Assembly (NCBI GenBank): GCA_000004985.1
Contig: GG738880.1
DNA: 64,000 nt
Reading direction: 5' to 3' (one strand)
From: Naegleria gruberi
Taxonomy: Eukaryota
How positions within the stretch are numbered: position 1 is the stretch's first letter; the number at the start of each line of letters is the position of its first letter. The notes under the pieces were generated by a model. It searched no databases and had not been told where the DNA came from. It was given only the letters and a program-made list of their open reading frames with translations. Both the position numbers and the translations under genes were made by a program. Shown here in pieces: positions 15,933 through 48,652 of this stretch.

Positions 15933-18900
15933 CTAACTAATGATTTTAAATTGTTTGGCTAGTAATTGTTGCATATTTAGCAATACACTTGCAAATTCCT
16001 TATTTCTGCCAATTTCTAACAGTTGAGGATGAAGGAAAATATCGCTGGTTATGCACGTCTCTCCAGGAACATGTGATTCAAAGATTGTATCCTTTATCTT
16101 TGTGCATGATTCATAACTGTGATTGGCTATGAATAGTTTGTCCTCGACAGAAATAGTTGGATGGGACAATAATGTTTCAATCAAGGCCTTCCACTCATTA
16201 ACACAAGAAGAGTTGGCAGAGTCAATTAACTTTCTAAAGAAATCTCTCTTGAAATACGTTTCAAATAATTGATGAAATAAAGGAGGACATGCCCACATTA
16301 TTGAACACATGTAAACAACAAAGGATGGCCGAAAAGTTTCCTCATTTCTTATATCATTCATAATGGAAGAAACAATAAATTCGTTCCACATACTCTGAGC
16401 AAGTATTGATTCTGACATATTCCTCTTAATTTCCAACAAGTAAAGAGATTTTACAGAATAAAGTGCCAATAAATCTTCATTCTATACATAGGTATCAAAA
16501 AATATTAGTCGACACTGAAGATATGATTGTACTTACACTTAAAATATTATTCAGTAATGAATAAGCCAAGGTAAAACTCCAAACTTTCGAATGATCAATC
16601 TTGCTACTTGTTGACAATATTGTGTGGAATGTACATGTTGAAAGAATTCTTAAAAGTGGAGAATCATTATTCAAATATTGAATGGTAAATTTCAACAATG
16701 TTTCACAAATTTGGGAATTCTCTTCGCTTGATCCCACCATACTACGAAGCAAGGCTGTTATGAGTTGAAAGATGCTAATAATAAAACCACTTGCAATATT
16801 CTCTGAATCAAATAAAGTGAGTAATTTCTCTATGGATTGAAGTGACCTTGTCAAGTTGGATTTGACTTGAAAGCTAGAGAGTCTCTGTAAAGAAATGCCA
16901 TTATCATCTGCTGATCTTATCAAGTAGATAATTTTCGTTAGTATATTCATAGTGAGGCCAATAGTCTTCAAATCTAGCTTTAGGTCTGAAAGAGAATGAA
17001 ATATTTTAGAATAGTGATTAAAAATAGTTGAGAGATAAACAACACTTCTCGAGAAATCCAATATGATGCTAGTGCATTTAGTAATCTCATCAAGAGTTGA
17101 TGTAAGGTTGGTGTTACATCCCTTCTTGAGTGAAATATAAATATTACTCAAAGTAGGTTCTATTATTTTCTGAATGACAAGTGTAGAGTCCTTCTCATGA
17201 ACCAGTGCTTCTGTTGTGAAGTATTCGCTCAGTATTCTCAAGAATTGGGTAGTTGAATTTTTCGATGTTGAATTTTCCATAAAGAGTGAAACTAGAGTTG
17301 GTACAAGATCCACTCTGGCATCCTTTAAAATACCAAGCAAATACGACTCTTGGCTATGTGATTGCATGTTGATAAGACCAGATAATAAGGTACGTGTAAT
17401 ACCACTTGTTGTGCTCTCCTGTTGAGAAGCCCATTTTACAAAGAGTGAGGTTCTCTCCTTGAAGGAAAAATTTGTCAACTTCATACACTCCAGATACCAA
17501 CCCAGAACCAAGTTAGATATTGTGGAGGGAATTGTGCCGAAAGAATAATGTAAGGAAAGACCAACAAAGAGTTCGGAAAGTCTGAGCCTGGAAAGAGTGC
17601 TCAAATTACTAAGGCTCTTATCAAGAATCATTGTTGAAATAGTGGACAATAATGTATTCAGTGGTGTAATAATTTCATTATTAAAAAGGGTGTAATGTAA
17701 AAGAGCAATTCCTAATGCACAAAGATCACTTCGTAACATACCAACAATGCTAGTTGGAGAAAAATCAATCTGATCCAATATGGAGCTCTCTACAGGTGAA
17801 TCCAATAAATCACTAGAGTGCAATACTAGGACTAATAGCTGTTTGTGAGCAAGTGTCATTTCACAGGATGAATTAATAGATAATGATACAAATTTCTTTT
17901 GCAATAGATAATCAAGAATACTGGCCCTTTTTTGTTGAACAAGTCTTTGATAGAAATAGTCGTGACATGTTCTCAAAAATCTTTCATGAAGACTCTCAGA
18001 GATATTAACATGCTCAAGAATGAGCTCATCAATTCTTGATAACAAATCTGATTGTTGAAATTCACTCAATCTTCCAAGCCCAATAGCACAAATCATAAAA
18101 GTAGCAAGTCCCTCTTCAACTTCATCCAAAACTCCATTTTTCAAAATAGTGCTAAATAATACTGTTAAATGGTGTACCAGTTTACTCGTATCGAGTGTAG
18201 ATTGTTGTATGAACATATAGCAAATCTCACAGAGAGTCTTGAAATTCAAGCCAATTGTTGTAACCATCTCCTTTACAACATCACTAGGAAAATTAATTAT
18301 TGTGATACTGATCTGTTCGCACAATGAATTGAAATTATTTTGAAAGTCTTTCTGGGTAGTAAGGCCAAATTCTACACTATTCAAATAGTACATGTAAAAT
18401 ATGCTCAGAATATTATTTGACAAATTCAAGTGGTCAATAGTTTCAACTTTGGATGGAAAAATCTTTAACAATGCTGTAATACCTAACTCTTGGAAATTAT
18501 GCAAAAAATTAGTACCAACCAAATTGTTTCCAGAAACCAAAAGGGAGTGAAATATGGCTAAAATTGATGGGCTTATTTCTCCAGTAGCATCCTTGTTAAG
18601 AGCTTCAAAAAGAAAGTCACTAATATCTGAATTTAAAAATTGAACTCTGGCATCTTGACTTTTTGTTGAGCATTCCAGTATGAGTTGGTTGCAAATAATT
18701 TGTATGGAAATGTTTGGAGAGAGAATCACTGATATGAGAGCATTAATTAATCTTTGGTAGTCAATGATGGAGAGTACATCAAGAGCCTCCCTGTCAAACC
18801 TAACAAGACAATGCAAAACAGCCAAAGCATTAATATGAAGATCTTCATCCTCAGCCTTCAACAAACAAGCAAGAACAGTGTCAATGAATGTCTCATTGGA

Positions 18901-19891
18901 TTTGTTGTTCCACACACCATGTGCAATTCGAGTACAATCACTGTGTAGTTGAATAATTTGGCATAATTTCAATATGATGAATAGAACATCAGACTTTTGT
19001 TCATTTTCCGTCTTGTTGAATGATAGCTGATTGGAAGTAAAGTTGTTGATGAGGATGATGAGCAGTGAAGAGAAGGCTTCCACAGGTATGTTCACTACAT
19101 TCCAACAATCTTCAGATTGAAGACTTCTACAAATCTTGTCAACTAATAAACAGAGAAAGTTGGCACAAACATCACCAAATTGTTGTTGTTCTTCACTTAT
19201 TCCACACATCTAAAAGAACATCACATCCAGGTGGATTCGAATATTGAAGTTTAGAATATAGAGTTTAAAGCAAACTTACCACTTGCACAATTAGAGGAAA
19301 ATCTCTGGAAAGTAACTTATCAGTTGGAACAATTTCCAACCATAAGCGAATAACCTCTTCAAGTATGTTGTTCTCTCCCAATGATGATGCTTGGTATGCT
19401 GATTTAGTCTTCAAGCCTCCTTGACTATTGTCCAACACGAGTGATGATGAAGCAGGAAGGATAGCTTTCAAACAAGTGGAAAGTAACAAAGGACCTACAT
19501 GATCCAAATCATTGACCATTGAATTGATTTTAGGATTCATCCCAGAGGCTAGTGAAGATATAATCATGGCCGAGGAAGAAGGACAAAGAAGTTGCTTCAA
19601 CACATCTAATAGTTTAATCTTCCTCAACGATAATTGGCTCTTATCAAACAGGAATGCCAAGGCACATTCAAGACAAATTGCTTGTTGTGTTGCTTGTTGT
19701 CCAATAGGAAAAGCACTAGTTACATTGTTATGGATTGATGTTGTTCCTCCTATGGTAGATGGTAATGAAGATAGGATGGAGAGAGGATTATGTAAATGAT
19801 GAGAGGAAGCAGCCATTGATGATGAAAGTAGACTACTCGGAAGGCTTGTTGTTGTGGATGATCCAGAAATTGTCTTGTAGTTGAACATCAT
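15933..19891 (-). CDS. Large (~1280 aa) alpha-helical ARM/HEAT-like repeat protein, function unknown; 3 exons: complement 19280..19891, 16537..19209, 15933..16481
   Basis: Three minus-strand ORFs join in phase 0 via two introns. One is GTAAGTTTGCTTTAAAC...TTCTTTTAG at plus 19210..19279 (70 nt). The other is GTAAGTACAATC...CTATGTATAG at plus 16482..16536 (55 nt). The protein is Leu-rich and helical throughout with no catalytic motifs. Confidence 0.55.
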
Positions 19892-26674: not shown

Positions 26675-27358
26675 TTATTGTTGAGGTTTGGACAGATTTA
26701 CAATTTCTTCAAGTAAATTTTCAAATGGCAAAATAGCTTCTGGTTGAATTTCCATATTGTCTCTGTTTTCATGGAGCATGATAAGACTCTTTTCAATGGC
26801 ATTCTTGGCCTTTTCCAAAGATTCTCTTCTTGCATTCAAATCAGATGATTCCATTGCTAGTTCTCTATAAAGTTTGGCAAGGAAATAATTTGCCTTTGGT
26901 TGAAATTCAACAGCATTAATAATTAAATCATCCATTTCTTCTGCAGTTGTGTAAACTTCTGGAATTTTAGTTAATTCAATAACGTGCTCCAAGTGTGGAA
27001 TGGCTTCCAATTTTCTATTCAATTCAAATGCAAGAATATATCCAATTTGAAGCATTGCAAAAATTGAATCTGGTTTCATTTCCACAATTTCCTGATAAAC
27101 TTTAATAGCTTCCTCGAATCTTCCAAGTTTTTGATTAGTTATGGCCTTTGATGAGAGTTGTCCTAATTTTTGAACTGCCAAAAATTCCTTTCTTCTCTTT
27201 TCTTGTTGTTCCGATGTTGATGATGATGAAGAATATTTCTTTGCATTATTAGAACAAGAATTATTAATAATTAAATGATGAGAGTAAAATAAATTCTTTT
27301 TAATGTGATAATTTTTCACAACAGCTGATGTGAAACACCTTGAACCAATTCTAAACAT
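26675..27358 (-). CDS. TPR-repeat protein (possible organellar targeting N-terminus)
   Basis: 227-aa ORF. TPR-like helical hairpins: EEAIKVYQEIVEMKPDSIFAMLQIGYILAF and YFLAKLYRELAMESSDLNARRESLEKAKNAIE. The N-terminus MFRIGSRCFTSAVVKNY is rich in basic and hydroxylated residues. Confidence 0.5.
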   Translation of the reverse strand: MFRIGSRCFTSAVVKNYHIKKNLFYSHHLIINNSCSNNAKKYSSSSSTSEQQEKRRKEFLAVQKLGQLSSKAITNQKLGRFEEAIKVYQEIVEMKPDSIFAMLQIGYILAFELNRKLEAIPHLEHVIELTKIPEVYTTAEEMDDLIINAVEFQPKANYFLAKLYRELAMESSDLNARRESLEKAKNAIEKSLIMLHENRDNMEIQPEAILPFENLLEEIVNLSKPQQ

Positions 27359-27458
27359 TTTTTTTGATTTGTTTTGTAATCTTTATTCCTACTTTGAATA
27401 AATTGTTATTTCACATTGCGAAAAAGTTGGGTGTTGGTTAGTATTATTTACAAGTTTC

Positions 27459-28811
27459 TTAAAGGAAATATTGAGAAACATCAAAACTGGACTCATCACC
27501 ACCATTGATAGAGGTTGCCACTTTGAAATCTCCATTGCCATTCTTTGGCTTGATGAGTTTCATTGTACTCTTGTGGAGTTTACTATCCACAGTGCATTCT
27601 CTTGCGTGTGAAGGAGCATCTTCAAATATATTGAAAAACATGTTCAATTCCTGGTCAATTTCCAGAACTGATGCCTTATTACCACATCGATAACAGTAAT
27701 TTGGTGCGCTCCACACTGTACTGAGTCTATCATCGAAGAGTAATCGATAGCCAGCATCACACAATTGGTGAGCTCTGCACATGTGAATGGCACTATTGAA
27801 ATGGAGGAACTTTTTAACAATATCACCTCCGAATAAATAGCCAGCCCCTCTTGAATTATTAGTTCCGAATCCTTCACGATCTGGATCTGGATCAGACCAC
27901 AATAAATCCACAAGTGGACCCTCCATTCCAGGTTCTCCAAATCTATCCAAAACTCTTATCTGATCCAGAGAGGTAATTGCAGGAGAAAGTCCACCATGTA
28001 CACAGAAAATCTTTTCATCCACCAATGCAGCCACTGTTAAATAATCAAAAAGATCAGTAAAATAATTCCAAGTATTTGGACTTCCATAATATTCCATACA
28101 TTCCTTATAAAAACCATAAGTTCTAGAAATTCCTCTAGTTTCATGATTACCTCTCAATAGAGTAATCCTTTGTGGCCACTTTAATTTATAACACAGCAGT
28201 AAACTCATTGTCAATACAGAGTGTTTTCCTCTATCCACATAATCTCCCAAAAACAAGTAATTAGTATTCGGTAAAGGTCCTCCAACTCTAAACATTTCAA
28301 TTACATCCCAAAATTGACCGTGAATGTCTCCAACAACTGTAACAGGAGATGAAACTCTCACAATATTACTTTCATTCATCAAAACTTCCTGTGCCTTGAT
28401 ACATAATTGTTTAATTTCAATTTCTCTCAAAGGAATTCCCTTCTCCAATCTTTCAATACAACTGTTTATAAAATCCGATGAATTTCCACCTATTGATGAT
28501 GATGTAGTATTCATCATCGTCATCATATTATTATTATTAATTAATTGTGATGAACATGAAATACAAGAAGCCTCTGATGAATAATTAGCATCACAGGAAG
28601 GCTCTATAGCTGTACAATAATCAACATTTCCCAAATTCCTTGCCCAGGTAAATGGCGATTGGTGTAATGTTGAAACTCTATTCAATATTTGCTGATAGGA
28701 AGAGTTTGTAGTTTTTAGTTGGTTGAAGATTTTAATAGAGTCGGGATCTTCTTCGATAGTTTGATTGGTGGATTTCTTCTTTCTTCCGTAGGCAGGAGTG
28801 GGTGAGGACAT
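27459..28811 (-). CDS. PPP-family Ser/Thr protein phosphatase catalytic subunit (PP2A/PP4/PP6-like) with ~130-aa N-terminal extension
   Basis: 450-aa ORF with the full PPP signature: GDIHGQ, GDYVDRG, GNHE, HGG, RG and SAPNYC (WSAPNYCYRCGN). Confidence 0.85.
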   Translation of the reverse strand: MSSPTPAYGRKKKSTNQTIEEDPDSIKIFNQLKTTNSSYQQILNRVSTLHQSPFTWARNLGNVDYCTAIEPSCDANYSSEASCISCSSQLINNNNMMTMMNTTSSSIGGNSSDFINSCIERLEKGIPLREIEIKQLCIKAQEVLMNESNIVRVSSPVTVVGDIHGQFWDVIEMFRVGGPLPNTNYLFLGDYVDRGKHSVLTMSLLLCYKLKWPQRITLLRGNHETRGISRTYGFYKECMEYYGSPNTWNYFTDLFDYLTVAALVDEKIFCVHGGLSPAITSLDQIRVLDRFGEPGMEGPLVDLLWSDPDPDREGFGTNNSRGAGYLFGGDIVKKFLHFNSAIHMCRAHQLCDAGYRLLFDDRLSTVWSAPNYCYRCGNKASVLEIDQELNMFFNIFEDAPSHARECTVDSKLHKSTMKLIKPKNGNGDFKVATSINGGDESSFDVSQYFL

Positions 28812-29038
28812 TTTCTAATTAGTTAAATATTAGTTAAATAGTTAAATAGTTAAAGTATTTAAATGATGAAGAAGGAATGGATGATTTATATATTTTGTAC
28901 AATGAATTGATGATTCAGAAGAGCAACAGGTTTTGGCTTGTTGCTATTTTTTTTTAATATTTTGTTGTTACTTTAAATACTATTTAATATTTAAATATAT
29001 TTTTACAATAATATTATTCAAGAGGTAGAGAATCAACT

Positions 29039-30031
29039 TTACTCAGCATTGTCCTCCACATGTTTTAAAATAATTTCATAAATTTTGAATAACAAATTTG
29101 GAGAAACAATCTTTTCATCCTCAATTCTTGTAAGGAAATTGGAAAATACTTTCGGTATGGCAAAGTAAGTATTCGATTTAGCATTGGCGGTATTTGTTGC
29201 TGGAGTTGGAGTGTTTGCTTGCTTTTTGTCTCCCTTTTGATCAATCTCAATCAAATGTTTGAGGAATTTTCTCAGTTGACTTGCATTTTCTCCCACAACT
29301 TTATCAGCCGAATCAATAGTTGCAAATTTAATCTTACACCAATCGTGAATGGCTTGATAGAAAATTCCTGACGACAATTCAGATGCCATGTTTGGTAAAA
29401 ATTCATTGATCATGAAATTTAAATCCCATCCACTAATTATTTCAGGAGAGAATGAATCTTCCTGACTTTCCACAATGTATTTCCTCAAATTATCAATCTT
29501 GGAATAATCTTCGTGATCCTTTGCGAGATTCTCTGAGAAATTTTGCACAATGAATGGCCACATATTCACATTCAAATAATCATCGTGAATGCAATCCAAT
29601 ATTCTACTCTTCACTTTTGGGGAACACTCAAATAGTGTGAGCAATGTGAGAATAATCCTAAAATCAGTCATTGATAAATCTCTCGTCAATGAAACTCCAT
29701 AAATTAATTGTAGAAATGTAATGACAATGAAGGATGGCAAAAAGAAGGTAATTTCCTTCTTATCCGGTGATAGTGCCATCACTTTGGAAATATCCTCCCT
29801 CCTACTCGTAGCAATATCATCATTAAATAATTGTTTAAAAACAGATGCTGATTCGGAAAGTTTTTCCATGTTTAAATAAAAGACTCTATCCTTTACTTGT
29901 TCACTTAAAATTCCAAGTTGATCATACTCTGTCTTACAAATACATTTAATATCCTTCTCGGGTGTTGCTGAGTGATCATTCCAGCCAGCACATGTGAATG
30001 AAGTGTGCGGAAGGTAAACTTTTCCTGGCAT
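29039..30031 (-). CDS. Hypothetical protein with possible BTB/POZ-like domain
   Basis: 330-aa ORF. The region SESASVFKQLFNDD...KKEITFFLPSFIVITFLQLIYGVSL...LTLFECSPKVKSRILDC loosely resembles a BTB fold. It begins only 9 bp downstream of the stop of the histidine-kinase gene on the same strand. The real initiator may be an internal Met (for example MEKLSESA). Confidence 0.4.
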   Translation of the reverse strand: MPGKVYLPHTSFTCAGWNDHSATPEKDIKCICKTEYDQLGILSEQVKDRVFYLNMEKLSESASVFKQLFNDDIATSRREDISKVMALSPDKKEITFFLPSFIVITFLQLIYGVSLTRDLSMTDFRIILTLLTLFECSPKVKSRILDCIHDDYLNVNMWPFIVQNFSENLAKDHEDYSKIDNLRKYIVESQEDSFSPEIISGWDLNFMINEFLPNMASELSSGIFYQAIHDWCKIKFATIDSADKVVGENASQLRKFLKHLIEIDQKGDKKQANTPTPATNTANAKSNTYFAIPKVFSNFLTRIEDEKIVSPNLLFKIYEIILKHVEDNAE

Positions 30032-30040
30032 TTTTTTCTA

Positions 30041-33000
30041 TCATCTTCTTACAATATCGAGCACTAGCTGTCTGATATCACTTAACCTGGTTGGCTTTGA
30101 CATGAAGTATTTTACACCATTGTTTAAGAGTTGTTCCTCTTCCTTCTTATTTACAATGTTTGCTGTGAGGAGTACAATGTTTGGAGCATTTTCTTTACAG
30201 GTTTCATGAATGATTCGAGACGTGTCAAACCCATCGAGTCCATCCATGAAAAGATCTAAAAAGATAATGTTAAAGCAGCTATTCTTGACATATTTGATAG
30301 CTTCCTCACCACTTGAAGCTATTGAAATCTTTTGTAATCCAAGTTTGATTAGCATGTGTGAGAGAACCTTTGAATTAATCATGTTATCATCCACAATGAG
30401 AACAGAAAAGTGACCAGCAATGCTCAGTAATTCGTCCTCAGGTACAATTGATCGTTTCTCTATAGGTTTGACCTCTTCAATTAGGTGCGATTTGAGGGCC
30501 TGTGTAAAATCGGCAAGTTTGAAAATTGGCTTGCTTAAATATGGACCTTCTTTCAGGCAAGAAAATTGAACCATGGAAGGCAGTATATGAATCTTGTTGT
30601 GATTCAATGGCAAGTTCAATTCATGACAAATACTTTCAACATTCGAAGATTGTAAAGCTTCCAATAAATTTAAATCCACCACTATTATTAGCTTATCCAA
30701 ACTGTCCAATTTAGATAATGAGCCTTCTAAGGATTCAATAAGTGATTGTTTTGAATTGCATATTACGAAATTCTCCTCTTCATTGTAACCCGTTGCAACA
30801 TTGAAACCCCTGGAGAAATTTTTCAAACTCTGTGAAAATAAATCATTCCTATCCAGTACCATATATTGAGTATTGCGAGGAGAGCTTGTATTCTTCCACT
30901 TTGAAAAAAAGTTTACATGTTTGGAGTTATTCTTTTCCATGTTGGCACGATCTTCAAGTGAAAGTTCCTCAATTTCCTTGAAAGTTGTCTTACATGTAAA
31001 GATGAATTTTGATCCCTTATTTAATCCTTCACTTTCTGCCTTCAAGCTTCCCCCGAGCGCGTTTGAAATCATTTTTGAAATGGAGACACCTAGACCTGTT
31101 CCTTTTGGTGCATGCTGGGTGTTAAATTGGAGGAATGGTTGGCCAATTTTTGTTAAATTTTCCTTTTCAATTCCAATACCCGTATCACAAACTTGAATTT
31201 AATGTCTATGAATAATGATATTATAAATATTACAAACCTTCTATTTCCAAGTGGGCTTGTTCAGCATCAATTTTGACCAATTGTACACCAATATAAATAT
31301 AGCCAACCTCTGTAAATTTCACAGCATTAGACAATAAATTGAGTACAACTTGCTTTAGTCTCCCTTTATCACTATTTAGAATTATATTAAAAGGAAAATC
31401 TGGTTTGTAGTCAACTATGAGATCAAGTTTCTTTTTTGTACATTCCAAAACTACAAGGTCAATAACCTCTTCAATTGGTTCATTAGCATAAAAATATTCT
31501 GAATTGAGTTTCATATGTTGCTCCAATTTCATTAAATCGAGAAAATCATTTATCAATGAGAGCATAGTCTCTCCACTATTCTTAATCATGGTCAGATATT
31601 CATAATGCTCATTACTGATATTCACTGATGATCCAAGTAATAAATCAGAAAGACCCAAAACGCACACAAGTGGAGTACGTAGATCATGTGATGTATTTCT
31701 CAAAAATTGCTCCTTCTCCATAATGACTTTCTCTGATATTTTTCGTTGCTCCAACAATTCTTGCTCCACTTTTCTTCTCTGTTCCACTTCCTCTTTAAGT
31801 TTAATATTGCTACGTAATAGCTCCTCGGTTCTTTGCTCGATCCTTTGTTCGAGATTTAAATTTGCCAACTTGAGTTTTTCCTTTGCCTCTTCTCTTTCCA
31901 AATAATACTGCCAAGAAACAATGATCGTGGAACAGGTTGTGCAAATTGGCTCCAAGAATGAAATATCCTCCTCACGAAATCCTCCTTCTTTATTGGCCAA
32001 TCCAATCATGCCAACAATTTTGTTATTATGTATAAAAGGTAGTCCAAGAAAACTATTGAGGGGTGGGTGTCCTAATCCAATAATTATTCAAAAAATATAA
32101 TCAATCGATTCAATCAACCAATACTTGAACATACCTGGAGGAACATGATTAGGTGATGCAAAAGGATGAGTTTTTGGGTGATTAGTCAGTAAAGGTTGCC
32201 CTGTCATCATTACATGACCAAAGAGACTGTTCATGTTATTGAACTTAAAGCCTACTTGTGTACATTTTTGAAATAGATCGAGTGCTTCTTGAGATAATTT
32301 CGTTCTGGCGAAAGATATAGCATGTGAGTGTAGAAAAGGTTTTCCATCATCTGTGTACTTGACCTCACCAATGAAACTGTACTGGCAACGAATGAGAGAT
32401 ATGACCTCATTCAGCAAGTCTAAGAAGAGTTTGGATGGATTTTCCATATGCAAGGCTGCACTCAGTTGTGCATTATAAATTGATCTTAGTAAGTCATGAG
32501 AACGGCTAGCGTGTCCATCACTCTCCGGAGAATTTGGGGAGTGATTGGATTTGAAGGAACATTTACCAGAGTGTTTTCGGTTTATCTTGAGTTCATCCTT
32601 AAATTCTAGATCAATGGCACATGCCTTTCTATTCATACTAATTCGTTCCAATGTTTGTGTTGATTGTTGAATTTCTGCAAGGAGGTGATGTTTTCTCAGA
32701 AGTGAATCCAATTGTGATGTTGCAAATGATGTCGTTTCGTCGTCATCCATATTCGAGGATGAGGAAGACGAGGAAACACTAGATGAGGCTATTGAAAAAT
32801 GTCGTCCTGTTGAACTTGGATCAGAAATACTTTCAGAAGAGAATGGACATGAAAATCCAAAATCACCTGAAATACTTTCTCTATGATGAGGAGGTGAGAA
32901 TGCTTGCTGATGAGATGTAGGTGTGCAAACAACACTTTCCTTATGATGATTATGTTCGGTTATTAAATTAATGTCTGTTCTGTTTGTTTTATTTGTTGAG

Positions 33001-33254
33001 GAGGATGGAATAGAATCACCCTGTTGTTCCATTGCTCGCGTATTGTTGTTGTACAACTCTTGTTGAGAACAGCACTGTTGTTGAGTGACCATGCTGAGAA
33101 GAGTTTTGTTTTTTTTTTGGCTAATCGCTTTGGACATTTTAAGTGGTTTAACTACCGTAAAAGAGAGCGTTAAGAAAACAACAGTAGTTGTCACAATAAA
33201 GTCGTAAGGAAATTGTTGAGGATATGATTGAAAAATAATATGAGCGACAAACAT
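30041..33254 (-). CDS. Hybrid sensor histidine kinase (GAF - HisKA - HATPase_c - receiver); 3 exons: complement 32144..33254, 31238..32080, 30041..31191
   Basis: Exon 1 is joined to exon 2 by GTATGTTCAAG...TGGATTAG (plus 32081..32143, 63 nt, phase 1), continuing a GAF-like domain (FIGEVKYTDDGKPFLHSHAIS...G-HPPLNSFLGLPFIHNNKIVGMIGLAN). Exon 2 has the H-box FLRNTSHDLRTPL and the N-box LLSNAVKFT. Exon 2 is joined to exon 3 by GTTTGTAATATT...AAATTCAAG (plus 31192..31237, 46 nt, phase 1), giving EIE-V-CDTGIGIEKENLTKIGQPFLQF...GTGLGVSISK (G1/G2 boxes). Exon 3 ends with a receiver domain (VLIVDDNMINSKVLSHMLIKLG...IIFLDLFMDGLDGFD...LLTANI...KPTRLSDI). The true start could be the internal ATG near 33140 (MSKAISQ). 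Confidence 0.8.
31192..31237 (-). other. Spliceosomal intron (46 nt) inside the HATPase_c region of the histidine kinase
   Basis: Minus-strand GTTTGTAATATTTATAATATCATTATTCATAGACATTAAATTCAAG. Removing it restores the G1 box (EIEVCDTGIGI). Confidence 0.7.
32081..32143 (-). other. Spliceosomal intron (63 nt) inside the GAF region of the histidine kinase
   Basis: Minus-strand GTATGTTCAAGTATTGG...ATTATTGGATTAG. Phase-1 in-frame join. Confidence 0.7.
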
Positions 33255-33885: not shown

Positions 33886-35648
33886 ATGGAATGGAATTGT
33901 TGTGGTATTAAACCATTGGCTCTTTTCCTAACGTTTTTTCTCGTGTTAGGATCAGGTTTAATATTGTTTGGAGTATTGTTTGGTGTTTTGGGACCTAGAA
34001 CACCATCCGATCCAAAGGATATTGCCCGATTTAATTCTCTAGCAAAGGTTTGTTAACATATTAATTCTATAGTATTAACAAGTAATATTCCGTATGGTTT
34101 AATTTTACATTGATGAATAATTACAATGTGGATTTTAATTTAATATTATACTGTATGGTTGACATTATAATTAATAATGCGGAATTATGATATACTATTG
34201 TGCTAATATTATGTAATGATTAAATTATTATCAATTAATTGGATTAATTAAATATGTAATGATTAAATTATTATTATTAATAATGATTCGGATAATATTG
34301 ACAGCAATGGCAAGCAACCAATAGAGAATTGTTTGCAGCCTTTAATTTCAACATGACTGCAACACTTGTAAATAATGCTCCTATTCCTCCTGCTCCTTCT
34401 GTATCTGCAGTTCCCTCTCCCTCCACTTCTACTTCAACACTTCCTCCTTCAGCAAAGAAAAAGAACACCAATTTTGTCAATCTTCATGAGCCAGGTGTTG
34501 TCATTCCTCCAAAACTAAACTCTATTTATTCTAGGTTAAACTATGAGAAACCTAAAGTGGAGACCCAAAAGGTCGTCAAAACAATCAAACAATCAACTAT
34601 TGTTAAGAATACTACATTGGATGAAAATCTCATACTTTTGGATAATGTCATAATGCAGAGCAATATGGATTCTGATGTTTTTCATCCTGGCGATCCATCC
34701 TTCTTACTCAAATATGACTCTCTTAAATATGAAGTTAAAAATCCGAATCCATCCCTCTTATTCAACAAACCAATCAAGACCAATTTTGACAAGGCACTCA
34801 ATATGACCATCTCATTTACCAATACATTAATGCTGTCAGTGAAACCAGAAGATAAGGAAGATGGAAAAAAGGGAGGTCTCACCCTCATGACAAATACTCC
34901 TAATACTACTCCTCACACAACACATATTGTGAATGGACCAGTCCTTACAGTACAAGCTCCTCTCGTATATTTGTTTTTGAAGACTGAATCTCCTATTTAT
35001 GATTCTGGATCATGTAGGTATGGATTTATGGAAGATGGAAAGTGTTACCTTGTCCATAGATTGAGAGAAATTTGCCTAAAGGTAAAAATTGTCAGTGGTG
35101 TCGCAGTATTAGATAATAGTTTGTAAGTACTTTAATTTTACAAAGTATTTTAATGAATTATGGAACTAATTTCATTCTCAATTAATAATTGATAATATTC
35201 TATGTGGACATGATTAAATAATTCAAGTGGAGGATATGGATGTGGACCAACAGATTTGCCATATGTACCAGCCATTCGATCAACATTTTCTGGATTGACC
35301 TATGTTTACAGTTTACTCAATACTGGTGAAGATGTCTACAATCATACAGTACTTTTCCAAGATTTAACCATTACACTGCGGTCATCCAATGACCCATTCG
35401 TGTATGCCGAGTACATTACCAATGGTACACTCAATTTCCAACCTTGGTATCACTATTATCAAAATATTGATGATGATATTGGCTTTGTGAGAGGATTTTT
35501 TGGATTTGGAAGTTTGGGATTGGGTGTTGTGATTGTCTTACCGAGCTTGCTATTTTGTTTATTATTTTGTTGTTGCAGTCCAACTCTTAGAAAGAAATTC
35601 ATGGTTGACGATCTAAGAGAGGAGCATGCACTCCTATTGAATATGTAA
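33886..35648 (+). CDS. Hypothetical bitopic membrane protein (N-terminal signal-anchor/TM and C-terminal TM); 3 exons: 33886..34047, 34305..35122, 35228..35648
   Basis: Exon 1 (ATG 33886) encodes MEWNCCGIKPLALFLTFFLVLGSGLILFGVLFGVLGPRT... and ends at the donor GTTTGT (34048). A 257-nt AT-rich intron ends at TTGACAG (34304) and joins in phase 0 to the 265-aa ORF. Its true end is the donor at TTT|GTAAGT (~35123). A 105-nt intron to AATTCAAG (35227) joins in phase 2 to the 130-aa ORF (GGYGCGPTDLPYVPAIRSTF...), which has a C-terminal TM (GLGVVIVLPSLLFCLLFCCC). The ORF-track frame implies my nucleotide indexing is off by 1 somewhere between 34329 and 35120, so exon-2/3 coordinates are approximate (±2). 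No known domain. Confidence 0.5.
34048..34304 (+). other. Unusually long (257 nt) AT-rich intron containing internal direct repeats
   Basis: Donor GTTTGTTAACAT, acceptor ATATTGACAG. The interior contains two copies of ATGTAATGATTAAATTATTAT about 55 nt apart, plus related TGTATGGTT motifs. The intron is about 85% AT, and all other introns recognised here are 35-105 nt. Confidence 0.55.
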
Positions 35649-36292
35649 GGTTAAAAGTTCACCATTTCCTTACCTTTTGTTGCCTTTATTAATATCTATT
35701 TCCAAAACTATTTTTTCATTTGTGTTGGCCAACATTCCATTAGGACACAACAAGAACAAAGGGAAAGCAAAAATTTCAAACATCTTCTCTATCCAAACCG
35801 AAAGCAACCAGGTTATTAGAAACATGTTACTCGAGAATCAATTGATTATCCAAGCATGAAAGTTTGTTTACTTTAATGCAGTCCAAAACCCAAAAGGCTA
35901 GTGCACTTTCAAACAATAATGTTATCTCGTTATTGTTGATTAGCATGCTTTGACAGCCCCTTCCATAACAAATCCCTCTCAATACATAACAGACCAGACG
36001 TTTGAGTGCTGCAACACGTACTTCCAAATTTTAAAAAAAAAACCGCCCATAACCAGGTCTTGGCTGACACACTTACCTCTCAATAAAGTTCAGCAGCATC
36101 AAAACCTTGCTCTCTCTGTGTGTGTTCGTGTTCGTATTTTCGTTTGAACGGCAACAGTTTCTTCAAATTTGTTTTGCAATTTTCTTGTTGTTTGTAATCA
36201 ACAACGACAGGGAGAAAGAATTACTGATAGTAATAGGAGGATTCATAGAGAATCATCGTAAAAAGTAATATCATCACAAAATAGTATATCAA

Positions 36293-38833
36293 ATGATGAG
36301 AGAACTTGCCACTGATGATAATTCACATGCAATAGCATCAACGTTATCTTCTTCTTCTGAAAAGATGAAAAGGCCTCAACAACAACCAACCACAATCAAA
36401 ATGGTTGCTCGTACCAAGTCGGCAAGTGTGAGGGCTAAACAATTATTTGAACAAGAGCAAGCCTTAAAAAGACAGATGCAAGAACAAGAGCAGAATACTG
36501 AGGAGGATGATGGTGATGGTGATGAGAATGAGAAGGATGAATCAGATAATAGTAGTGATAATAGTAGTAGTTTGAGTAGTTATTCGATTTCTTCTGAGGG
36601 GAGTTTGGAAGAAGTTTGTGCAAAGAGTTTGATGGTTCTTAACAAACAAGAAGATAATAACATTGCAATAGTAGAAATAACGGATGATGAAAAGAGTAGT
36701 AATGGTAGTGGAAGCAGCAATGGTGGCGTTGTGGAAAATTCAAAATCCAATGAAACTACCACATCAAATTGTACTAATCAGAATTCCACTATAATTTCTG
36801 ACAATGAACAAGTATTGAGAGAACCCAAAGTCATTGAGGATGATGTATTGAACACATTGGTGGCAATGAAACATCAGCAGGATCAACCTCAGGTGCAATG
36901 CACGATAACCAATGTTGCATCATCACAACAAGATGGTTCTGTATCGTCACTGCCTGAGAAGAGGACAATCGAAAATGTTAATGAACGGATACAACCTTGT
37001 GACGATACAACAACTCGGGAGCATTCAAATATGAAAAATACTGAAATTGGAAATACTCAACACCTTAATCTTTCCTATAATCCTAATCATGCTGAGGCAA
37101 GATCAACAACTGATGTTTCAGACAATACAACACAACAATACTCCTCATCTGTTGATGGACAATTACAAATGCACACAACAGTCACTCCATCAATACATAC
37201 AACCCTGAAAAACAGTTCATTACCTCAAACACAGCAGCAGCAGCTGCAACCATCTCTTCCCCAAATTTATCATCACAAAGATGATCATCAATACTCATAT
37301 AGTACCTCAACAATTTCAACAATCGTTACTACAGCCAATGCATCTGTAACAAAGTCAGCATCTACTGCATATCATCAACACCAATACACTGTAAACTCGA
37401 GTCCATCAAACAAAACCACCTACCCAGAGTCTCACTACCTTAATTCGTATGGATCCTCTGGTGGACCAATACCAACAATAACAACTAGACATTCACCACC
37501 TCAAAGTCCTACCATTATTACTAATAGTATACCACCACAACAACCATCATCCTCATCATCACATTATAGTGGTAGTAGTAGCTCTGCATTTTCAAGTCAA
37601 GTATTCTCATCACCTCCAAGATATGATCCTTCTATTAGTAATAATACTGTCCCACCTGCATCTATTCATTCTACACCACCACCACCACCACAAAAGGTAT
37701 CTTCACATATCTATGATCATGGTGTTTATACCAAACACTATCACCAACCTCCAATGGTTTATCATTATCATCAACCTTATCTTCCTCCAATGTCTGTCCC
37801 TCCACCACCTCATCATCATGTTCCTTATATGCAACCCTATATGACCAATCCAATGATGAGCATTCCTCCACACAATCAAACATCTTCGTATAGTTCAATT
37901 CCTCAACAAGAGCAATATTATTATCAACAGCAAACAAGCAGCAGTTCTAAACCACCAATTCAAGGATCTTATCCTTCTTCTTCCACAACAACTTATGTAA
38001 ATAGCTCACCACATCATCAACCAGCTCTATCAAATCAAAGTTCAAGTTCAAAATCAACTAGTCCACAACCACTAACACCATCGCATGAAACTCTTGGAAA
38101 TTCATCCAATAATAATCAACCAAAAAACTCGTTTTTTCAAGATATTATTCAAATTCCAAAACCAATGGAATCTACCAAAAGAAAGCGAGAATATCTCAAA
38201 GATATTGTCTTGGATACTGCAAAATTAGGCCAATTAGAATATGAAACCTTTGTGGCTGAACAACAACGAAGACAGGAAGGAGCTATCACACCTAACAAGA
38301 AGAGTAAGCTTTTTAATATGGATTTTATGAATACAGTCGATCCAAATATCATGAGAGACAAGATTGAAATTACAAAAAGAAAGGAATTTTATGCTGATCC
38401 AGCTCCACCTAGAACAGAATATTTGGAAATTTTGCAAGGTGTTCGAGCCAATGCAGAATACAAGTTTGGAGATCCACTGCCTGATCATGTTGTCAAGGTA
38501 ACATTTGGTAGATATAGTGAAACTGCCAAGTCAGCTTCTGTTAGACTTTCAATTTATGGAAGAGGTCTTAGAGATGAACCAAAAAAGAGGAAGTTTATTC
38601 AAGCCATTGCAAATTTTGAGTTGGAGGTCATTAATGGAGCAGCAAAAGTCACCTTTTCAGATCTTGCAGCAAGACATGCTAGTCACAAATTTGGGAAAAT
38701 GTTGTTTTTGAGATTTGGATTATTGTGTGATGGTGTAGAAGTTTCTTCAGTTGAAACTGAAGGTTTTACCACCATCACCTTACGAGGTATTCAAAAGAGA
38801 CAACAACGACAGAATAAAGAAGTCAATCAATAA
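36293..38833 (+). CDS. Low-complexity (Gln/Ser/Pro/His/Thr-rich, prion-like) protein with a conserved ~190-aa C-terminal globular domain; function unknown
   Basis: Continuous 846-aa ORF. The N-terminal ~640 aa are compositionally biased (poly-Q, PPPP, HHH, S/T runs). The C-terminus (KRKREYLKDIVLDTAKLGQLEYETFVAEQQRR...VKVTFGRYSETAKSASVRLSIYGRGLRDEPKKRKF...KVTFSDLAARHASHKFGKMLFLRFGLLCDGVEVSSVETEGFTTITLRGI) looks like a folded, possibly beta-sandwich DNA/protein-binding domain with adjacent basic NLS-like stretches. Confidence 0.55.
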   Translation: MMRELATDDNSHAIASTLSSSSEKMKRPQQQPTTIKMVARTKSASVRAKQLFEQEQALKRQMQEQEQNTEEDDGDGDENEKDESDNSSDNSSSLSSYSISSEGSLEEVCAKSLMVLNKQEDNNIAIVEITDDEKSSNGSGSSNGGVVENSKSNETTTSNCTNQNSTIISDNEQVLREPKVIEDDVLNTLVAMKHQQDQPQVQCTITNVASSQQDGSVSSLPEKRTIENVNERIQPCDDTTTREHSNMKNTEIGNTQHLNLSYNPNHAEARSTTDVSDNTTQQYSSSVDGQLQMHTTVTPSIHTTLKNSSLPQTQQQQLQPSLPQIYHHKDDHQYSYSTSTISTIVTTANASVTKSASTAYHQHQYTVNSSPSNKTTYPESHYLNSYGSSGGPIPTITTRHSPPQSPTIITNSIPPQQPSSSSSHYSGSSSSAFSSQVFSSPPRYDPSISNNTVPPASIHSTPPPPPQKVSSHIYDHGVYTKHYHQPPMVYHYHQPYLPPMSVPPPPHHHVPYMQPYMTNPMMSIPPHNQTSSYSSIPQQEQYYYQQQTSSSSKPPIQGSYPSSSTTTYVNSSPHHQPALSNQSSSSKSTSPQPLTPSHETLGNSSNNNQPKNSFFQDIIQIPKPMESTKRKREYLKDIVLDTAKLGQLEYETFVAEQQRRQEGAITPNKKSKLFNMDFMNTVDPNIMRDKIEITKRKEFYADPAPPRTEYLEILQGVRANAEYKFGDPLPDHVVKVTFGRYSETAKSASVRLSIYGRGLRDEPKKRKFIQAIANFELEVINGAAKVTFSDLAARHASHKFGKMLFLRFGLLCDGVEVSSVETEGFTTITLRGIQKRQQRQNKEVNQ

Positions 38834-44582: not shown

Positions 44583-45809
44583 TTAAATCTTAATATTCTT
44601 CGAGTATTTAAGGTGAAGAATGATTGCTGAATAGACAAGTAGACTGTGAGCATACTTGATGTCTGTGTTAGTGATTTCTACATAAAGACCTCCCTTCAAT
44701 TTGTCAAATGCCAACAGTTGAGCACGTTTTCTATACTTCCTTTCTTTTTCTGTTACAAGATCAGACTTGGTTCCAACTAATACCACTTCCATTGGATTGT
44801 GTTGTTCCAAATCTTTGATGTGCCTATCCAATCTATCCAAAGTTAGTGCACTATTACTTAAATCAAACATGGCAAATGCTACATGTCCTCCTCTGTAGTA
44901 TATTGGAGATAGTGTTGCAAATCTCTCTGGACCACTGTAATCCCACAATTGCAATTCAGAGATGGAATTGGGAATGAGTTTGTATCTTTGTTTCAAGAAG
45001 GAAGCTCCAATGGTCGGCATGTCTTCCTTTTGTCTACAATTAATATTCTTAATGGCACACTCCAAAGTGGATGTCTTTCCCACATAACAGTCACCAAGCA
45101 TGATTACTTTGAAAATTTGTGTCCCCTCAGTGATCATTGGTTTGTTTGGTTTCCTTTCAATTTGAATCGATGATGCTGAACTGTTATTTTTAAAGAATGA
45201 TGACAAGTAATGTAAAACTGAACTCATAACACCACTACTATTCTTTTCATCTGATTTCTTCTCAATTTCTACTTTGGAATTATTAGAAACAACTTGATCT
45301 GAATTAATAGGACTTTCCACCTTCCCAAAGAATTCACTATAACACTCTATCATTTCCAATTCAGTTCCAAACCATTCATATTCTTTCTTACAAAAATCCA
45401 TTGTAATCGTTGCATGCAAATTTTGTGTTCTAACCTCACCCATCTTGGTTACCCCAATCAATCGAGTCGCCAATTCATAAACATGTTCCTTAAACATCAT
45501 CTTGATGAAATTTCTTCCCATTCTACTTTGAAAAAGGCTTGAAAATGCTTCATCACCACCACTATTATTCGAATCATCATCAACCAATTGCGCATAATCT
45601 TGATAACGTTTCCAAATGATCGGAAGGGAAATCTCCCTCCACGACCTACAAACTCTCACCACGGAAAAGATCAAGTGGGTCATGGATAAATGTTGGAAAA
45701 TCTCTCCAGTGAGTTCATCCGGAAGGGTGGAAAATATTTCCTGGAAGGAATACTGCTTGGTTTTAGAGTTGAAAAACAGGCGAGTGAGGGCTGAATTGTT
45801 GTTGATCAT
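44583..45809 (-). CDS. F-box domain fused to a Rab-like small GTPase
   Basis: 408-aa ORF. The N-terminus has an F-box-like motif (LPDELTGEIFQHLSMTHLIFSVVRVCRSWREI). The C-terminal half is a Ras-superfamily G domain: G1 IMLGDCYVGKTS, switch II/G3 LWDYSGPERF, G4 LVGTKSDL, and a Rab-like fold (EITNTD...). It lacks the C-terminal CaaX/CC prenylation motif. Confidence 0.7.
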   Translation of the reverse strand: MINNNSALTRLFFNSKTKQYSFQEIFSTLPDELTGEIFQHLSMTHLIFSVVRVCRSWREISLPIIWKRYQDYAQLVDDDSNNSGGDEAFSSLFQSRMGRNFIKMMFKEHVYELATRLIGVTKMGEVRTQNLHATITMDFCKKEYEWFGTELEMIECYSEFFGKVESPINSDQVVSNNSKVEIEKKSDEKNSSGVMSSVLHYLSSFFKNNSSASSIQIERKPNKPMITEGTQIFKVIMLGDCYVGKTSTLECAIKNINCRQKEDMPTIGASFLKQRYKLIPNSISELQLWDYSGPERFATLSPIYYRGGHVAFAMFDLSNSALTLDRLDRHIKDLEQHNPMEVVLVGTKSDLVTEKERKYRKRAQLLAFDKLKGGLYVEITNTDIKYAHSLLVYSAIILHLKYSKNIKI

Positions 45810-45934
45810 TTTTTTTTTAAAGATTTTTTATTGTAATCTCAATGAATAGTAAATAGTCTTAATATGGAAGGTGAAAAATTTCATCATTTGGGATAAATTG
45901 AATGAACCATCATGTGGAAAAGAGGCTAATTTCT

Positions 45935-46909
45935 CTAAGGAATGAGTAAAATCTTGCCAGTACTTTTACGTTGTTCCAAAAATTCATGAGCTAGAGCTCC
46001 CTCACTCAATTTGAAATTCTTCCACTCACTAATTGTAATCTTTTTTTGAGAAATCCATGAAAATAATTCAGTGGAACGTTTCAATCTCTCCTCCCTACTT
46101 GTTAGGACATTCCACAAGTCGCCACCAGTGAGTGTTTTTGAGCCATCCATTAACATTCGTGGATTGATGAGTGGAGGATCGCCACCTGCCATTCCATAGA
46201 ATACGACAGTTCCTCCAATTTTTGTAATTTTGAATGAGTCCATGATTGTTGAACCAACTGATTCGTAGACTACGTTAACACCTATTTGATTGGTCAATTG
46301 AAGTATTTGTTCAGTCCAATTATCCTTATATAGAAAAACATGATCTGCTCCAATTTGTTTTGCAATTTCTGCCTTTTCTTCACTTGAAGTCAGTCCAATA
46401 ACTGTTCCTCCCAATAATTTGATAATTTGGGTAAGCAATTGACCAACTCCACCTGCCACTGCATGCACCACTGCAACAGTTCCCTCCTTCACAACAAATG
46501 AATCTCTTGTCAAATAATGAGCTGTCAATCCTTGCAACAAGACAGCTGCTGCCATCTCTGATGAAATCTCATCTGGCAGAGGAATTGCCTTCTCCACAGT
46601 AACTTTCACCAATTGAGCATTGGCATGAGGCACATCAGCAAAACCAACTCTCATCCCCACTCGAATCAAATCAGAGTTCACCTCACTTCCAATCTCTTCT
46701 ACAATTCCAGCCCCTTCATATCCCAAAATATAGGGAGGTTCTCCCACCAAATGATAATTTCCATTCCTTCTGTAAATATCTGCAAAATTCAAGCCAATGG
46801 CCTGAGTCCTAACCAACACATCATTCTTTCCAATTTGTGGTTTTTCCAATTCTTTCATGTAGAGAACTTGAGAAGCTTCTCCGAATCGATCAAAAACAAG
46901 AGCTTGCAT
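45935..46909 (-). CDS. NADPH:quinone oxidoreductase / zeta-crystallin-like medium-chain dehydrogenase
   Basis: 324-aa ORF. MQALVFDRFGEASQVLYMKELEKPQ, GLNFADIYRRNG and the Rossmann motif VAGGVGQLLTQIIKLLGGTVIGLTSSEEK match the quinone-oxidoreductase subfamily. Confidence 0.8.
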   Translation of the reverse strand: MQALVFDRFGEASQVLYMKELEKPQIGKNDVLVRTQAIGLNFADIYRRNGNYHLVGEPPYILGYEGAGIVEEIGSEVNSDLIRVGMRVGFADVPHANAQLVKVTVEKAIPLPDEISSEMAAAVLLQGLTAHYLTRDSFVVKEGTVAVVHAVAGGVGQLLTQIIKLLGGTVIGLTSSEEKAEIAKQIGADHVFLYKDNWTEQILQLTNQIGVNVVYESVGSTIMDSFKITKIGGTVVFYGMAGGDPPLINPRMLMDGSKTLTGGDLWNVLTSREERLKRSTELFSWISQKKITISEWKNFKLSEGALAHEFLEQRKSTGKILLIP

Positions 46910-47278
46910 GATACTTTAATTTGTTGTGTTGAGCTTTTTTTTAGAGATTATGCATGACGTCTCTTGTGTGATGAGGAGGAGAATTGTTCATTGGTAATTA
47001 CGGAATTAGAGTAATTAAAGCGTCCTTATTGATGGAAAGTTGCAATTGTTTTTACTGTTTTTTTTGGAGTTGATGTGAAAATGTCTGAACTCACTCTTCT
47101 AGTCTGTGAATCATGGCAACTTCTGCTGGATATTAAGCCATGCTGAACTCTTATTGTGAATCTACGAAGAGTTTCGTCTTGTTTTTTAGAAGAAATATGT
47201 TAAATTAATTAAAAATACACTATTTTATTTAAAACACAGCGCGTTAAGTATTGAAAAAAGACAAACTATTTTGATCAC

Positions 47279-48652
47279 TTATTGTTCAGTGTACTTTTTC
47301 AATTCTTGTTGGAGATTCCAATTTTCCTTTTCCAAAGCTTCAACACGTTGTCTCAATTCTTCATTTTGCTTGACCAATTCTTGTGGATTTGAAGTCTTGG
47401 CTGGCAAAACAGTCTTTGGTTGTTTGGCCTTAATTTCAACGTTTGGTTTGAAATCACGGAATTGAACATCAATTTCCTTATCTTCTGGATTCATGGAAAC
47501 CAAAGATAATTCAGCATCTTGACCAGAGAAGTAATCAGAAGCAGACAAGGCAGGAGATGGAGAAGCAGTCTTTGGATAGATATCAGATTGGAACAATTCA
47601 GACTTTCTTGGAACAGTGAATGAAATTGGAGTAATTTGATTAGCAGTCAACTTGAACAATCTGACAATTTCGTTAGAAGTAGTATCAACAGCAATCTTTG
47701 GAAGCATAGCCATACCCATTTGTGGATCAGTTGATCTAAATTCAGACAATGAGTGAATGTATGGTTCTTCATTAGTAACTTCAAAGAATCTAATGTTACC
47801 ATCACCCTTACCAGCCAAGAAGAGCAAATTAGTATCTGGATCATAGAATGGCATAATCAAACCAGAAGCCATATCAATATTAACAGTGTGCAATGGCTTT
47901 TCCAATGAACGTGGATCCCACATCATGTATTGTCTTTCAGAGGTCTTTGAGAAACCAACAGAGAACAATCTATCAGTATTGGTAATCCATTGAACACGAG
48001 ATCCCTTAGTACCACCATGACCTTCAACTTCAAGAGCAACTGCACCCTTTCTAGGATCAATAATTCTCAACTTTTTATCCTTTGAAGTGGAGGCAAACAA
48101 TGAACCATTCTTATTGAAAGAAATTGATTGAATATCTTTCCACAAATCTTTCATTTCAACTTGGCTCTTACCAGTTTCAATATCCCACAAAACAACTTTG
48201 TGATCTTGACCAGCAGTCAACAAGACATTGTTAGCAGTTGGATGGAATTCCAACAAACCAACCTTCTTCATGTGACCTTCCAATGTAACTGATGGTTCAG
48301 TAACAGTGCTTGTCAAACCATCTTGTGGAATTGACCAAATCTTGGCAGTAGCATCAACTGAACCAGTTGCCAAAATATATTGATTGAATGGATGGAACTT
48401 TAAATCCAAAACAGCACCAGTGTGGCCAGATAAAAGTGGCAAATCAGCAGCTTGTTTACCTGGAGTCTTTTGGTTCAAAACAGCAACTGAACCACCACCA
48501 CCTTGCCATGGAACAGCAACGAACAAGGCATTAGCAGCAAGCCAATTAGAATCCCAAGCACCAACATTTGGACGAATGTTTTGGAAGGCGAATTCTGCCT
48601 TGTATGGTTCACCGAAAACGTGACGATAGAGTGATGATCTGACAATGGACAT
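47279..48652 (-). CDS. Coronin (WD40 actin-binding protein with C-terminal coiled coil)
   Basis: 457-aa ORF with the coronin N-terminal signature (SSLYRHVFGEPYKAEFAFQNIRPN...), WD repeats (LSGHTGAVLDLKFHPF, WSIP, LEGHMKKV) and a C-terminal heptad coiled coil (QELVKQNEELRQRVEALEKENWNLQQELKK). Confidence 0.85.
   Translation of the reverse strand: MSIVRSSLYRHVFGEPYKAEFAFQNIRPNVGAWDSNWLAANALFVAVPWQGGGGSVAVLNQKTPGKQAADLPLLSGHTGAVLDLKFHPFNQYILATGSVDATAKIWSIPQDGLTSTVTEPSVTLEGHMKKVGLLEFHPTANNVLLTAGQDHKVVLWDIETGKSQVEMKDLWKDIQSISFNKNGSLFASTSKDKKLRIIDPRKGAVALEVEGHGGTKGSRVQWITNTDRLFSVGFSKTSERQYMMWDPRSLEKPLHTVNIDMASGLIMPFYDPDTNLLFLAGKGDGNIRFFEVTNEEPYIHSLSEFRSTDPQMGMAMLPKIAVDTTSNEIVRLFKLTANQITPISFTVPRKSELFQSDIYPKTASPSPALSASDYFSGQDAELSLVSMNPEDKEIDVQFRDFKPNVEIKAKQPKTVLPAKTSNPQELVKQNEELRQRVEALEKENWNLQQELKKYTEQ

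Follow-up and report, generated by a model that had tools for sequence, protein, structure and literature searches.

Cytosolic sensors in which a GAF domain is coupled to a histidine kinase are known from Mycobacterium tuberculosis. These proteins, DosS (DevS) and DosT, resemble in this respect the Naegleria protein described below, and differ from it by having two GAF domains, no receiver and DosR as a partner; their phospho-acceptor domain is also of a different type. In amoebae, the hybrid kinases of Dictyostelium take part in a kinase-RdeA-RegA phosphorelay, in which RdeA is a histidine-phosphotransfer (Hpt) protein and the partners are encoded at unlinked loci. For Naegleria gruberi NEG-M, 24 histidine kinases have been catalogued, exactly one of which, NgrubHK11, contains a GAF domain (Kabbara et al. 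2019, PMC6324907), and N. gruberi was found to encode 28 kinase and 33 receiver domains (Sheikh et al., PMC11589745). We analyzed a stretch of 64,000 nt from N. gruberi contig GG738880.1 (assembly GCA_000004985.1), hereafter named the window, and in particular a histidine kinase gene situated on its minus strand at positions 30041-33254. This gene very probably corresponds to NgrubHK11, or else to the NgrubHK11 orthologue of a close strain. The gene type is therefore already known, since Naegleria histidine kinases, one GAF-containing protein included, have been published, and the gene is an ordinary member of that published family.

We consider it very likely that the locus is a functional, spliced nuclear gene of Naegleria (N. 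gruberi group) encoding a soluble GAF hybrid sensor histidine kinase, with a predicted activity and a predicted phosphorelay. Its gene structure, its domains, its catalytic residues and its orthology within the genus are all documented below. The locus consists of three neighbouring open reading frames (ORFs) of 388, 259 and 343 aa on the same strand (33254-32135, 32071-31238 and 31191-30041). All GT...AG pairs around the two gaps between these ORFs were enumerated, and few combinations gave a single open frame. One splice pair alone, intron 1 at 32134-32072 and intron 2 at 31237-31192, keeps the conserved residues, and it gives a gapless alignment to the Naegleria orthologues across both junctions; at the junction in the GAF domain (intron 1), the alignment to bacterial homologues is gapless as well. 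The other in-frame GT-AG combinations were rejected, each of them removing conserved motifs or invariant residues. The spliced product has 1034 aa, or 995 aa if counted from a conserved methionine, Met40.

Exon 1 (32135..33254, the maximal ORF) encodes a poorly conserved, Ser-rich and low-complexity N-terminus, and then the GAF domain up to two thirds of its length. It is followed by intron 1 (32072..32134, 63 nt, GTATGT...TTAG), a phase 1 intron in Gly374, directly before His375; unspliced, exon 1 meets a stop 15 codons into this intron. Exon 2 (31238..32071) encodes the end of the GAF domain, a coiled-coil linker, the HisKA domain, which carries His502, and the N-terminal half of HATPase_c, in which the N box lies. 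Intron 2 (31192..31237, 46 nt, GTTTGT...CAAG) is a phase 1 intron in Val652 that separates the N box (619-626) from the G1 box (654-658), and exon 3 (30041..31191, stop codon included) encodes the G1, F and G2 boxes, a degenerate receiver and the C-terminal receiver. The original prediction, made from the sequence alone, was that the H, N, G1 and G2 boxes and the C-terminal receiver are recovered after removal of two short introns, one splitting the GAF domain and the other separating the N and G1 boxes. Our three-exon model agrees with it on all these points, the introns being located in codons 374 and 652. The introns have a low GC content (0.24 for intron 1 and 0.17 for intron 2, compared to 0.365 for the kinase coding sequence), and two further putative introns of the window have comparable length and ends.

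The ATG at 33254 is merely the start of the longest ORF, and on this point the earlier gene model needs a correction: the true start is probably Met40 (ATG 33137..33135), as suggested by comparison with an independent metagenome contig. This contig of 3804 nt (L002; ENA ERZ929261, run ERR1078381, project PRJEB11402) is 98.5% identical in DNA to the kinase locus and, judging from its sequence, comes from a very close Naegleria strain of environmental origin. Both introns are unchanged in it, and a 5-nt insertion and a 3-nt deletion are found inside the first 160 nt of the maximal ORF. Because these indels throw codons 1-39 out of frame, and because the L002 ORF opens at the equivalent of Met40, we favour Met40 as the start. 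From Met40 through the stop, L002 keeps the reading frame, with 16 synonymous codon differences versus 11 non-synonymous ones; of the latter, 5 fall in the first 40 residues after Met40. The sole hydrophobic, transmembrane-like stretch (aa 18-35) lies upstream of Met40, and the protein is therefore probably 995 aa long and soluble, with no transmembrane segment. We infer the splice sites and the start codon from genomic sequence, and this limit has to be counted against the model. A prokaryotic gene caller run on L002 reported the three exons as separate proteins of 348, 259 and 343 aa, a case that illustrates how eukaryotic genes can resemble bacterial operons in metagenome protein sets.

The spliced protein contains, in this order, a GAF domain, a coiled coil, HisKA, HATPase_c, a degenerate receiver and an intact receiver, and all four domains named by Pfam were above the curated cut-offs. 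The GAF domain (GAF_2, PF13185, aa 274-424; 31920..32435, intron 1 included) was detected at 7e-19 and has a GAF fold. A coiled-coil linker of about 65 residues (aa 425-492, within exon 2) leads to the HisKA dimerisation and phospho-acceptor domain (aa 493-558; 31518..31715; Pfam 1.3e-13), whose H box SHDLRTP contains His502 (31686-31688). In the HATPase_c catalytic domain (aa 608-719; 30989..31370, intron 2 included; Pfam 3.2e-22), the N box LLSNAVKF (with Asn622), the G1 box DTGIG, the F box PFLQF and the G2 box GTGLG (682-686) are all present once intron 2 is removed. The canonical C-terminal receiver (aa 915-1028; 30062..30403) was found by Pfam Response_reg at 1.8e-17 and by a local hidden Markov model (HMM) at 3e-31, and the AlphaFold (AF2) model of this domain has a predicted local distance difference test score (pLDDT) >90. 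Its set of residues is complete, with the acidic pair D919/D920, the phospho-acceptor D964 (30254-30256), T994 and K1017. By the sequence criteria of the family (HisKA, HATPase_c and receiver), the protein is a hybrid histidine kinase.

Between the ATPase domain and the C-terminal receiver, some 190 residues have no Pfam name. Within them, aa 759-888 (30482..30871) matched a receiver profile with hhalign (76% probability, E 2e-5, 123 columns), aligned, in bacterial homologues that have two receivers, with the first one, and were predicted by AF2 to adopt a (beta-alpha)5 topology. As D765-R766 replaces the acidic pair, this middle domain is most likely a receiver that has degenerated; it still has Asp824 and Lys872, which N. 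fowleri has as well. NCBIfam models grouped the kinase core with hybrid kinases of the BarA/TorS/ArcB type, through generic matches below the cut-offs, and gave nothing specific to the sensor domain.

Orthologues, which are also the top database matches, are present in two other species of the genus. The N. fowleri protein (P0001, 'unnamed protein product', 1144 aa) has 50% identity; from residue 195 it can be aligned colinearly as far as the C-terminus, through all three exons, and the locus is therefore one gene rather than several. The N. lovaniensis orthologue (P0002, C9374_006534), which is partial, has 54% identity. In both, as in NgrubHK11, GAF, HisKA, HATPase_c and receiver follow in the same order as here; the two orthologues differ from this gene by their intron positions. 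Synteny is conserved too: the divergently transcribed upstream gene (34302-35645, plus strand) also neighbours the N. lovaniensis orthologue, with 35-71% identity. No protein identical over its full length was found in the protein collections searched. The original prediction of a well-integrated eukaryotic gene, not recently transferred, is supported by these orthologues and this synteny, by the introns conserved in L002, and by base composition: the GC content of the coding sequence and its GC content at third codon positions (GC3, 0.325) are inside the range of the neighbouring genes, the window as a whole having a GC of 0.35. This window value, like the identity of roughly 50% to N. fowleri, fits the N. 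gruberi group. Other genes of the window are plainly eukaryotic, and encode a coronin, a PP5-like phosphatase, an F-box/Ras protein and a zinc alcohol dehydrogenase. A GT-AG removal that restores the frame, a native composition and eukaryotic neighbours are what is expected of a eukaryotic gene with spliceosomal introns.

Regarding the sensor, the sequence comparisons give a lead, namely that this GAF domain resembles bacterial haem gas sensors more than cyclic-nucleotide binders. Taken as a single sequence against solved structures, it matched the GAF domain of PtsP (6.5e-4) and GAF-A of DosS/DevS (1.2e-3), and a cGMP phosphodiesterase only at 0.34. We then built a family alignment of 27 GAF sequences (A1), in which P372, G374, H375, the F-L-G-x-P motif, G397 and N400 are invariant. 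With the A1 profile, the best sequence matches among solved structures were GAF-A of M. tuberculosis DosS and DosT (PDB 2w3d, 2vzw; 7e-7 for DosT and 2e-6 for DosS), followed by PtsP (4e-5), PDE10A (0.13) and Lcd1 (0.18). DosS and DosT have the proximal-ligand motif P-x-x-H-P-P-x-x-x-F-L-G-x-P in common with the Naegleria protein, and His375 (32067-32069) aligns with DosS His149 and DosT His147, at the position of the proximal ligand. In DosS, His149 is the proximal haem ligand (the numbering was checked on the construct used for crystallisation, which spans Asp63-Arg210 with five further residues, PMC4082495).

The ligand could thus be haem, as in DosS/DosT, with O2, NO, CO or the redox state as the signal; on the strength of these alignments we regard this as possible, though doubtful. 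Several observations weigh against it. Among 43 homologous GAF segments, the His is present in 36 of the 39 whose motif is readable, and is missing in 3. The distal tyrosine that hydrogen-bonds the bound ligand (DosS Tyr171, DosT Tyr169) corresponds here to Gly397, in a conserved G-x-I-G-L-A-N string. Moreover, the HMMER alignment with DosS and DosT covers the C-terminal half of the GAF domain only. Our literature search on haem-binding GAF domains turned up the Anabaena All7016-type proteins alone, which we take to be a different, Cys-linked family.

The same GAF subfamily is widespread in bacteria and apparently uncharacterised. Bacterial forms include a stand-alone GAF domain and fusions or associations with an OmpR-type DNA-binding domain (Motiliproteus, Aliamphritea), GGDEF, an adjacent hemerythrin and STAS; these proteins (P0125, P0128, P0132, P0193, P0196) are annotated merely as 'GAF domain-containing protein'. 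If the haem reading is true, this large subfamily, with its motif P-x-G-H-P-P-x-x-x-F-L-G-L-P, would be defined as one of haem sensors. A haem-GAF sensor kinase would also be, to our knowledge, the first described in a eukaryote. Confirmation of haem would suggest that Naegleria, which alternates between oxic and low-oxygen environments and includes a lethal human pathogen, the brain-eating N. fowleri, has a sensor of O2, NO or redox state. Histidine kinases are absent from humans and have been discussed as drug targets (PMC6324907).

An explanation that comes close to an even chance is that the domain senses another small metabolite, or a redox signal without haem, as do the GAF domains of PtsP (EI-Ntr) or of the fRMsr type. 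The conserved His-Pro-Pro motif would then be structural or bind a different ligand, which we find nearly, if not quite, as credible as its opposite. The variety of outputs found among the bacterial family members (GAF alone, OmpR-type DNA-binding, GGDEF, STAS) is typical of a general ligand-sensing module, and a non-haem ligand would fit with the absence of the distal Tyr of DosS. However, PtsP itself lacks the His-Pro-Pro motif and has only a generic FLGxP strand in common with the Naegleria domain, whereas DosT and DosS score above PtsP with the A1 profile and have the invariant His at the exact position.

The original prediction favoured a cyclic nucleotide or a small molecule as the GAF signal, and pointed to a class III cyclase gene about 15 kb away. 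That the domain senses cAMP or cGMP, like those of PDE2/5/6/10/11 and of the cyanobacterial cyclases CyaB1/2, and couples the kinase for instance to this cyclase, appears improbable to us, and with modest confidence we favour haem over cAMP/cGMP as the most likely class of ligand. The top Foldseek matches are indeed the cyclic-nucleotide-binding GAF domains of PDE5A, Lcd1 and PDE6 (E 3e-7 to 1e-6), but in fold searches GAF domains that do not bind cyclic nucleotides, those of PtsP, fRMsr and DosS, score equally high. In sequence, the cyclic-nucleotide GAF domains match the A1 profile at E 0.13-0.18 only, DosT and DosS being stronger by five orders of magnitude, and this makes the cyclic-nucleotide reading weak. 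The Naegleria domain does contain a string, N400-K401-x3-F405-x3-D409, loosely like the NKFDE signature. That signature consists of N-K and then, further on, F-x3-D-E, and the spacing of the Naegleria string is shorter. In addition, D409 is followed by I410, so that the final Glu is missing, and the NK...F...D string is not kept in the bacterial proteins of the family, most of which have NR...Y instead.

As for the cyclase, the gene is real, and cAMP signalling is known in Naegleria. The ORF at 13357-15918 (plus strand, 854 aa) has a class III adenylate/guanylate cyclase domain at residues 596-772 (E 1.5e-13). It is situated 14.1 kb from the 3' end of the kinase gene, on the opposite strand and with about 8 ORF-defined genes in between, and nothing connects the two in any evident way. 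The very large size of the cyclase family in Naegleria counts against a cyclic-nucleotide coupling at this locus; cyclases number around a hundred in N. gruberi, and proximity to the kinase by chance is therefore plausible. The N-terminal 590 residues of the cyclase ORF have no Pfam match. Next to it, a 904-aa ORF without Pfam match (16498-19209, minus strand) gave a weak phmmer match (E 0.011) to the neighbouring cyclase domain, which may be due to chance or to a very divergent cyclase-like region.

Turning to the phosphorelay, we infer the kinase activity, the ligand and the partners, as follows. The GAF domain would bind a cofactor or a small ligand, and the signal would travel via the coiled coil of about 65 residues to the dimeric HisKA/HATPase_c core. 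This core is predicted to autophosphorylate on His502, and the phosphoryl group would pass intramolecularly to Asp964 in the C-terminal receiver; the middle receiver, which is degenerate, probably has a structural or regulatory role. From Asp964, in the manner of other eukaryotic phosphorelays, the phosphoryl group would be transferred to an Hpt protein and to response regulators whose genes lie elsewhere in the genome.

We looked for such partners with local HMMs on all six-frame ORFs of at least 25 aa of the window. The Hpt HMM was built from 29 Hpt segments of bacterial homologues, and detects yeast YPD1 at 2e-13. It found no Hpt in the window, the best match having an E of 3.8, and a regular-expression search of the window for the HxxKG motif gave no match. 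With the receiver and kinase HMMs, this gene alone was detected in the window, no second receiver or kinase gene being found. That no Hpt or response-regulator partner turned up in the 64 kb scanned counts against the proposed relay. The literature searched contained no mention of an Hpt protein from Naegleria. The window indeed lacks, as originally reported, an Hpt gene and a gene for a stand-alone response regulator; this has little meaning, since eukaryotic kinase, Hpt and regulator genes are normally unlinked, and phosphorelay genes are not clustered in eukaryotes.

RegA, a receiver-linked cAMP phosphodiesterase, is reported to be conserved in N. gruberi (PMC4399386). By analogy with the amoebal system of Dictyostelium, a RegA-type receiver-cAMP phosphodiesterase is a reasonable downstream candidate, and could be one target of the relay. 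The likeness between the Dictyostelium Dhk kinases and the Naegleria kinase is one of analogy, without demonstrated orthology, and the RegA link is likewise analogy only. The full proposal, that the kinase and its N. fowleri orthologue constitute a bacterially acquired haem gas or redox sensor of the DosS/DosT type, feeding a eukaryotic phosphorelay (for example one acting on cAMP and encystment via RegA), is put forward as a speculative one that we think unlikely to hold in every part.

We also examined the origin of the gene. Beyond Naegleria, the next full-length matches are bacterial proteins with a PAS-GAF-kinase-receiver(-receiver-Hpt) organization (E 1e-72 to 1e-60). A search with a GAF-only profile returned 105 proteins at E <=1e-10, most of them unnamed metagenome proteins with bacterial-type architectures. 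Those named by organism are all bacterial; as exceptions, the 105 include two ORFs without a name, one of which was traced to this gene and the other to the orthologue in N. fowleri. Among amoebozoan kinases, that of Acytostelium (P0054) scored best, though only at 1e-41, and its GAF domain lacks the H-P-P motif of the family. The closest bacterial hybrids, of the BarA/TorS/ArcB class (Rheinheimera P0009, Cyanobacterium stanieri P0015, Okeania P0029), have a GAF domain of the same subfamily, with 30-41% domain identity and the motif P-x-G-H-P-[PA]-x-x-x-F-L-G-L-P in common with the Naegleria protein, and the same kinase core and receiver pair, the first receiver being often degenerate. They differ by PAS domains and a fused Hpt, both absent from the Naegleria protein. 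In the latter, the coiled coil that separates GAF from HisKA is longer and the N-terminus is of low complexity, and its gene is interrupted by spliceosomal introns.

These matches suggest that a bacterial gene, or at least its sensor, was probably acquired before the Naegleria species split, and that introns were gained later. The original prediction took the introns as a sign of an ancient eukaryotic gene, and this part of it does not stand: intron positions are not shared with the orthologues, and an old bacterial acquisition fits better than ancient eukaryotic ancestry because the GAF subfamily is otherwise found only in bacterial-type proteins. A point to be held against the bacterial origin is that it is drawn from best matches and taxon distribution.

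Intron positions were compared using the genomic loci of N. lovaniensis (L001) and of N. fowleri (L003 and L004, recovered through ORF P0209). In the conserved part of the protein, these two species have four intron positions in common (HPK^RSP, ILGF^SDLL, DTGI(G)^IEK and GGNLK^VDSQ), and none of the four is used in the gene studied here. Relative to these shared positions, its intron 1 is placed 25 nt downstream of the first and its intron 2 is placed 18 nt upstream of the third, the latter pair being in the same phase; the orthologue intron regions near these two introns are at L001 7470-7590 and 8545-8625, and at L003 7915-8070 and 9000-9150. The differences may be explained by intron sliding, or by independent loss and gain. 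The introns do show a resident eukaryotic gene; being lineage-specific, they are therefore uninformative on deep ancestry. The locus offers a clean example of a bacterial-type gene with different introns gained in sister lineages.

Bacterial contamination, mis-assembly or a decaying pseudogene, which the bacterial nature of the nearest relatives outside Naegleria and the three ORFs called on the metagenome contig might evoke, has next to no chance of being correct and was rejected, given the two AT-rich GT-AG introns that restore a single frame, the eukaryotic flanking genes, the orthologues with introns of their own and conserved synteny in two other Naegleria species, the catalytic residues, all intact, and the frame kept from Met40 to the stop in a second strain.

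The immediate neighbours of the kinase gene, at 29042-30037 (minus strand), 34302-35645 (plus strand) and 36269-38830 (plus strand), have no Pfam match. Further on, a two-exon gene at 26678-28814 (minus strand) has the architecture of protein phosphatase 5, with TPR repeats ahead of a calcineurin-like phosphoesterase domain. Finally, the ORF at 44586-45827 (minus strand) has an F-box at its N-terminus and a Ras/Roc GTPase domain at its C-terminus, an unusual pairing in a single ORF; it adjoins the zinc alcohol dehydrogenase (45938-46915) and coronin (47282-48700) genes.

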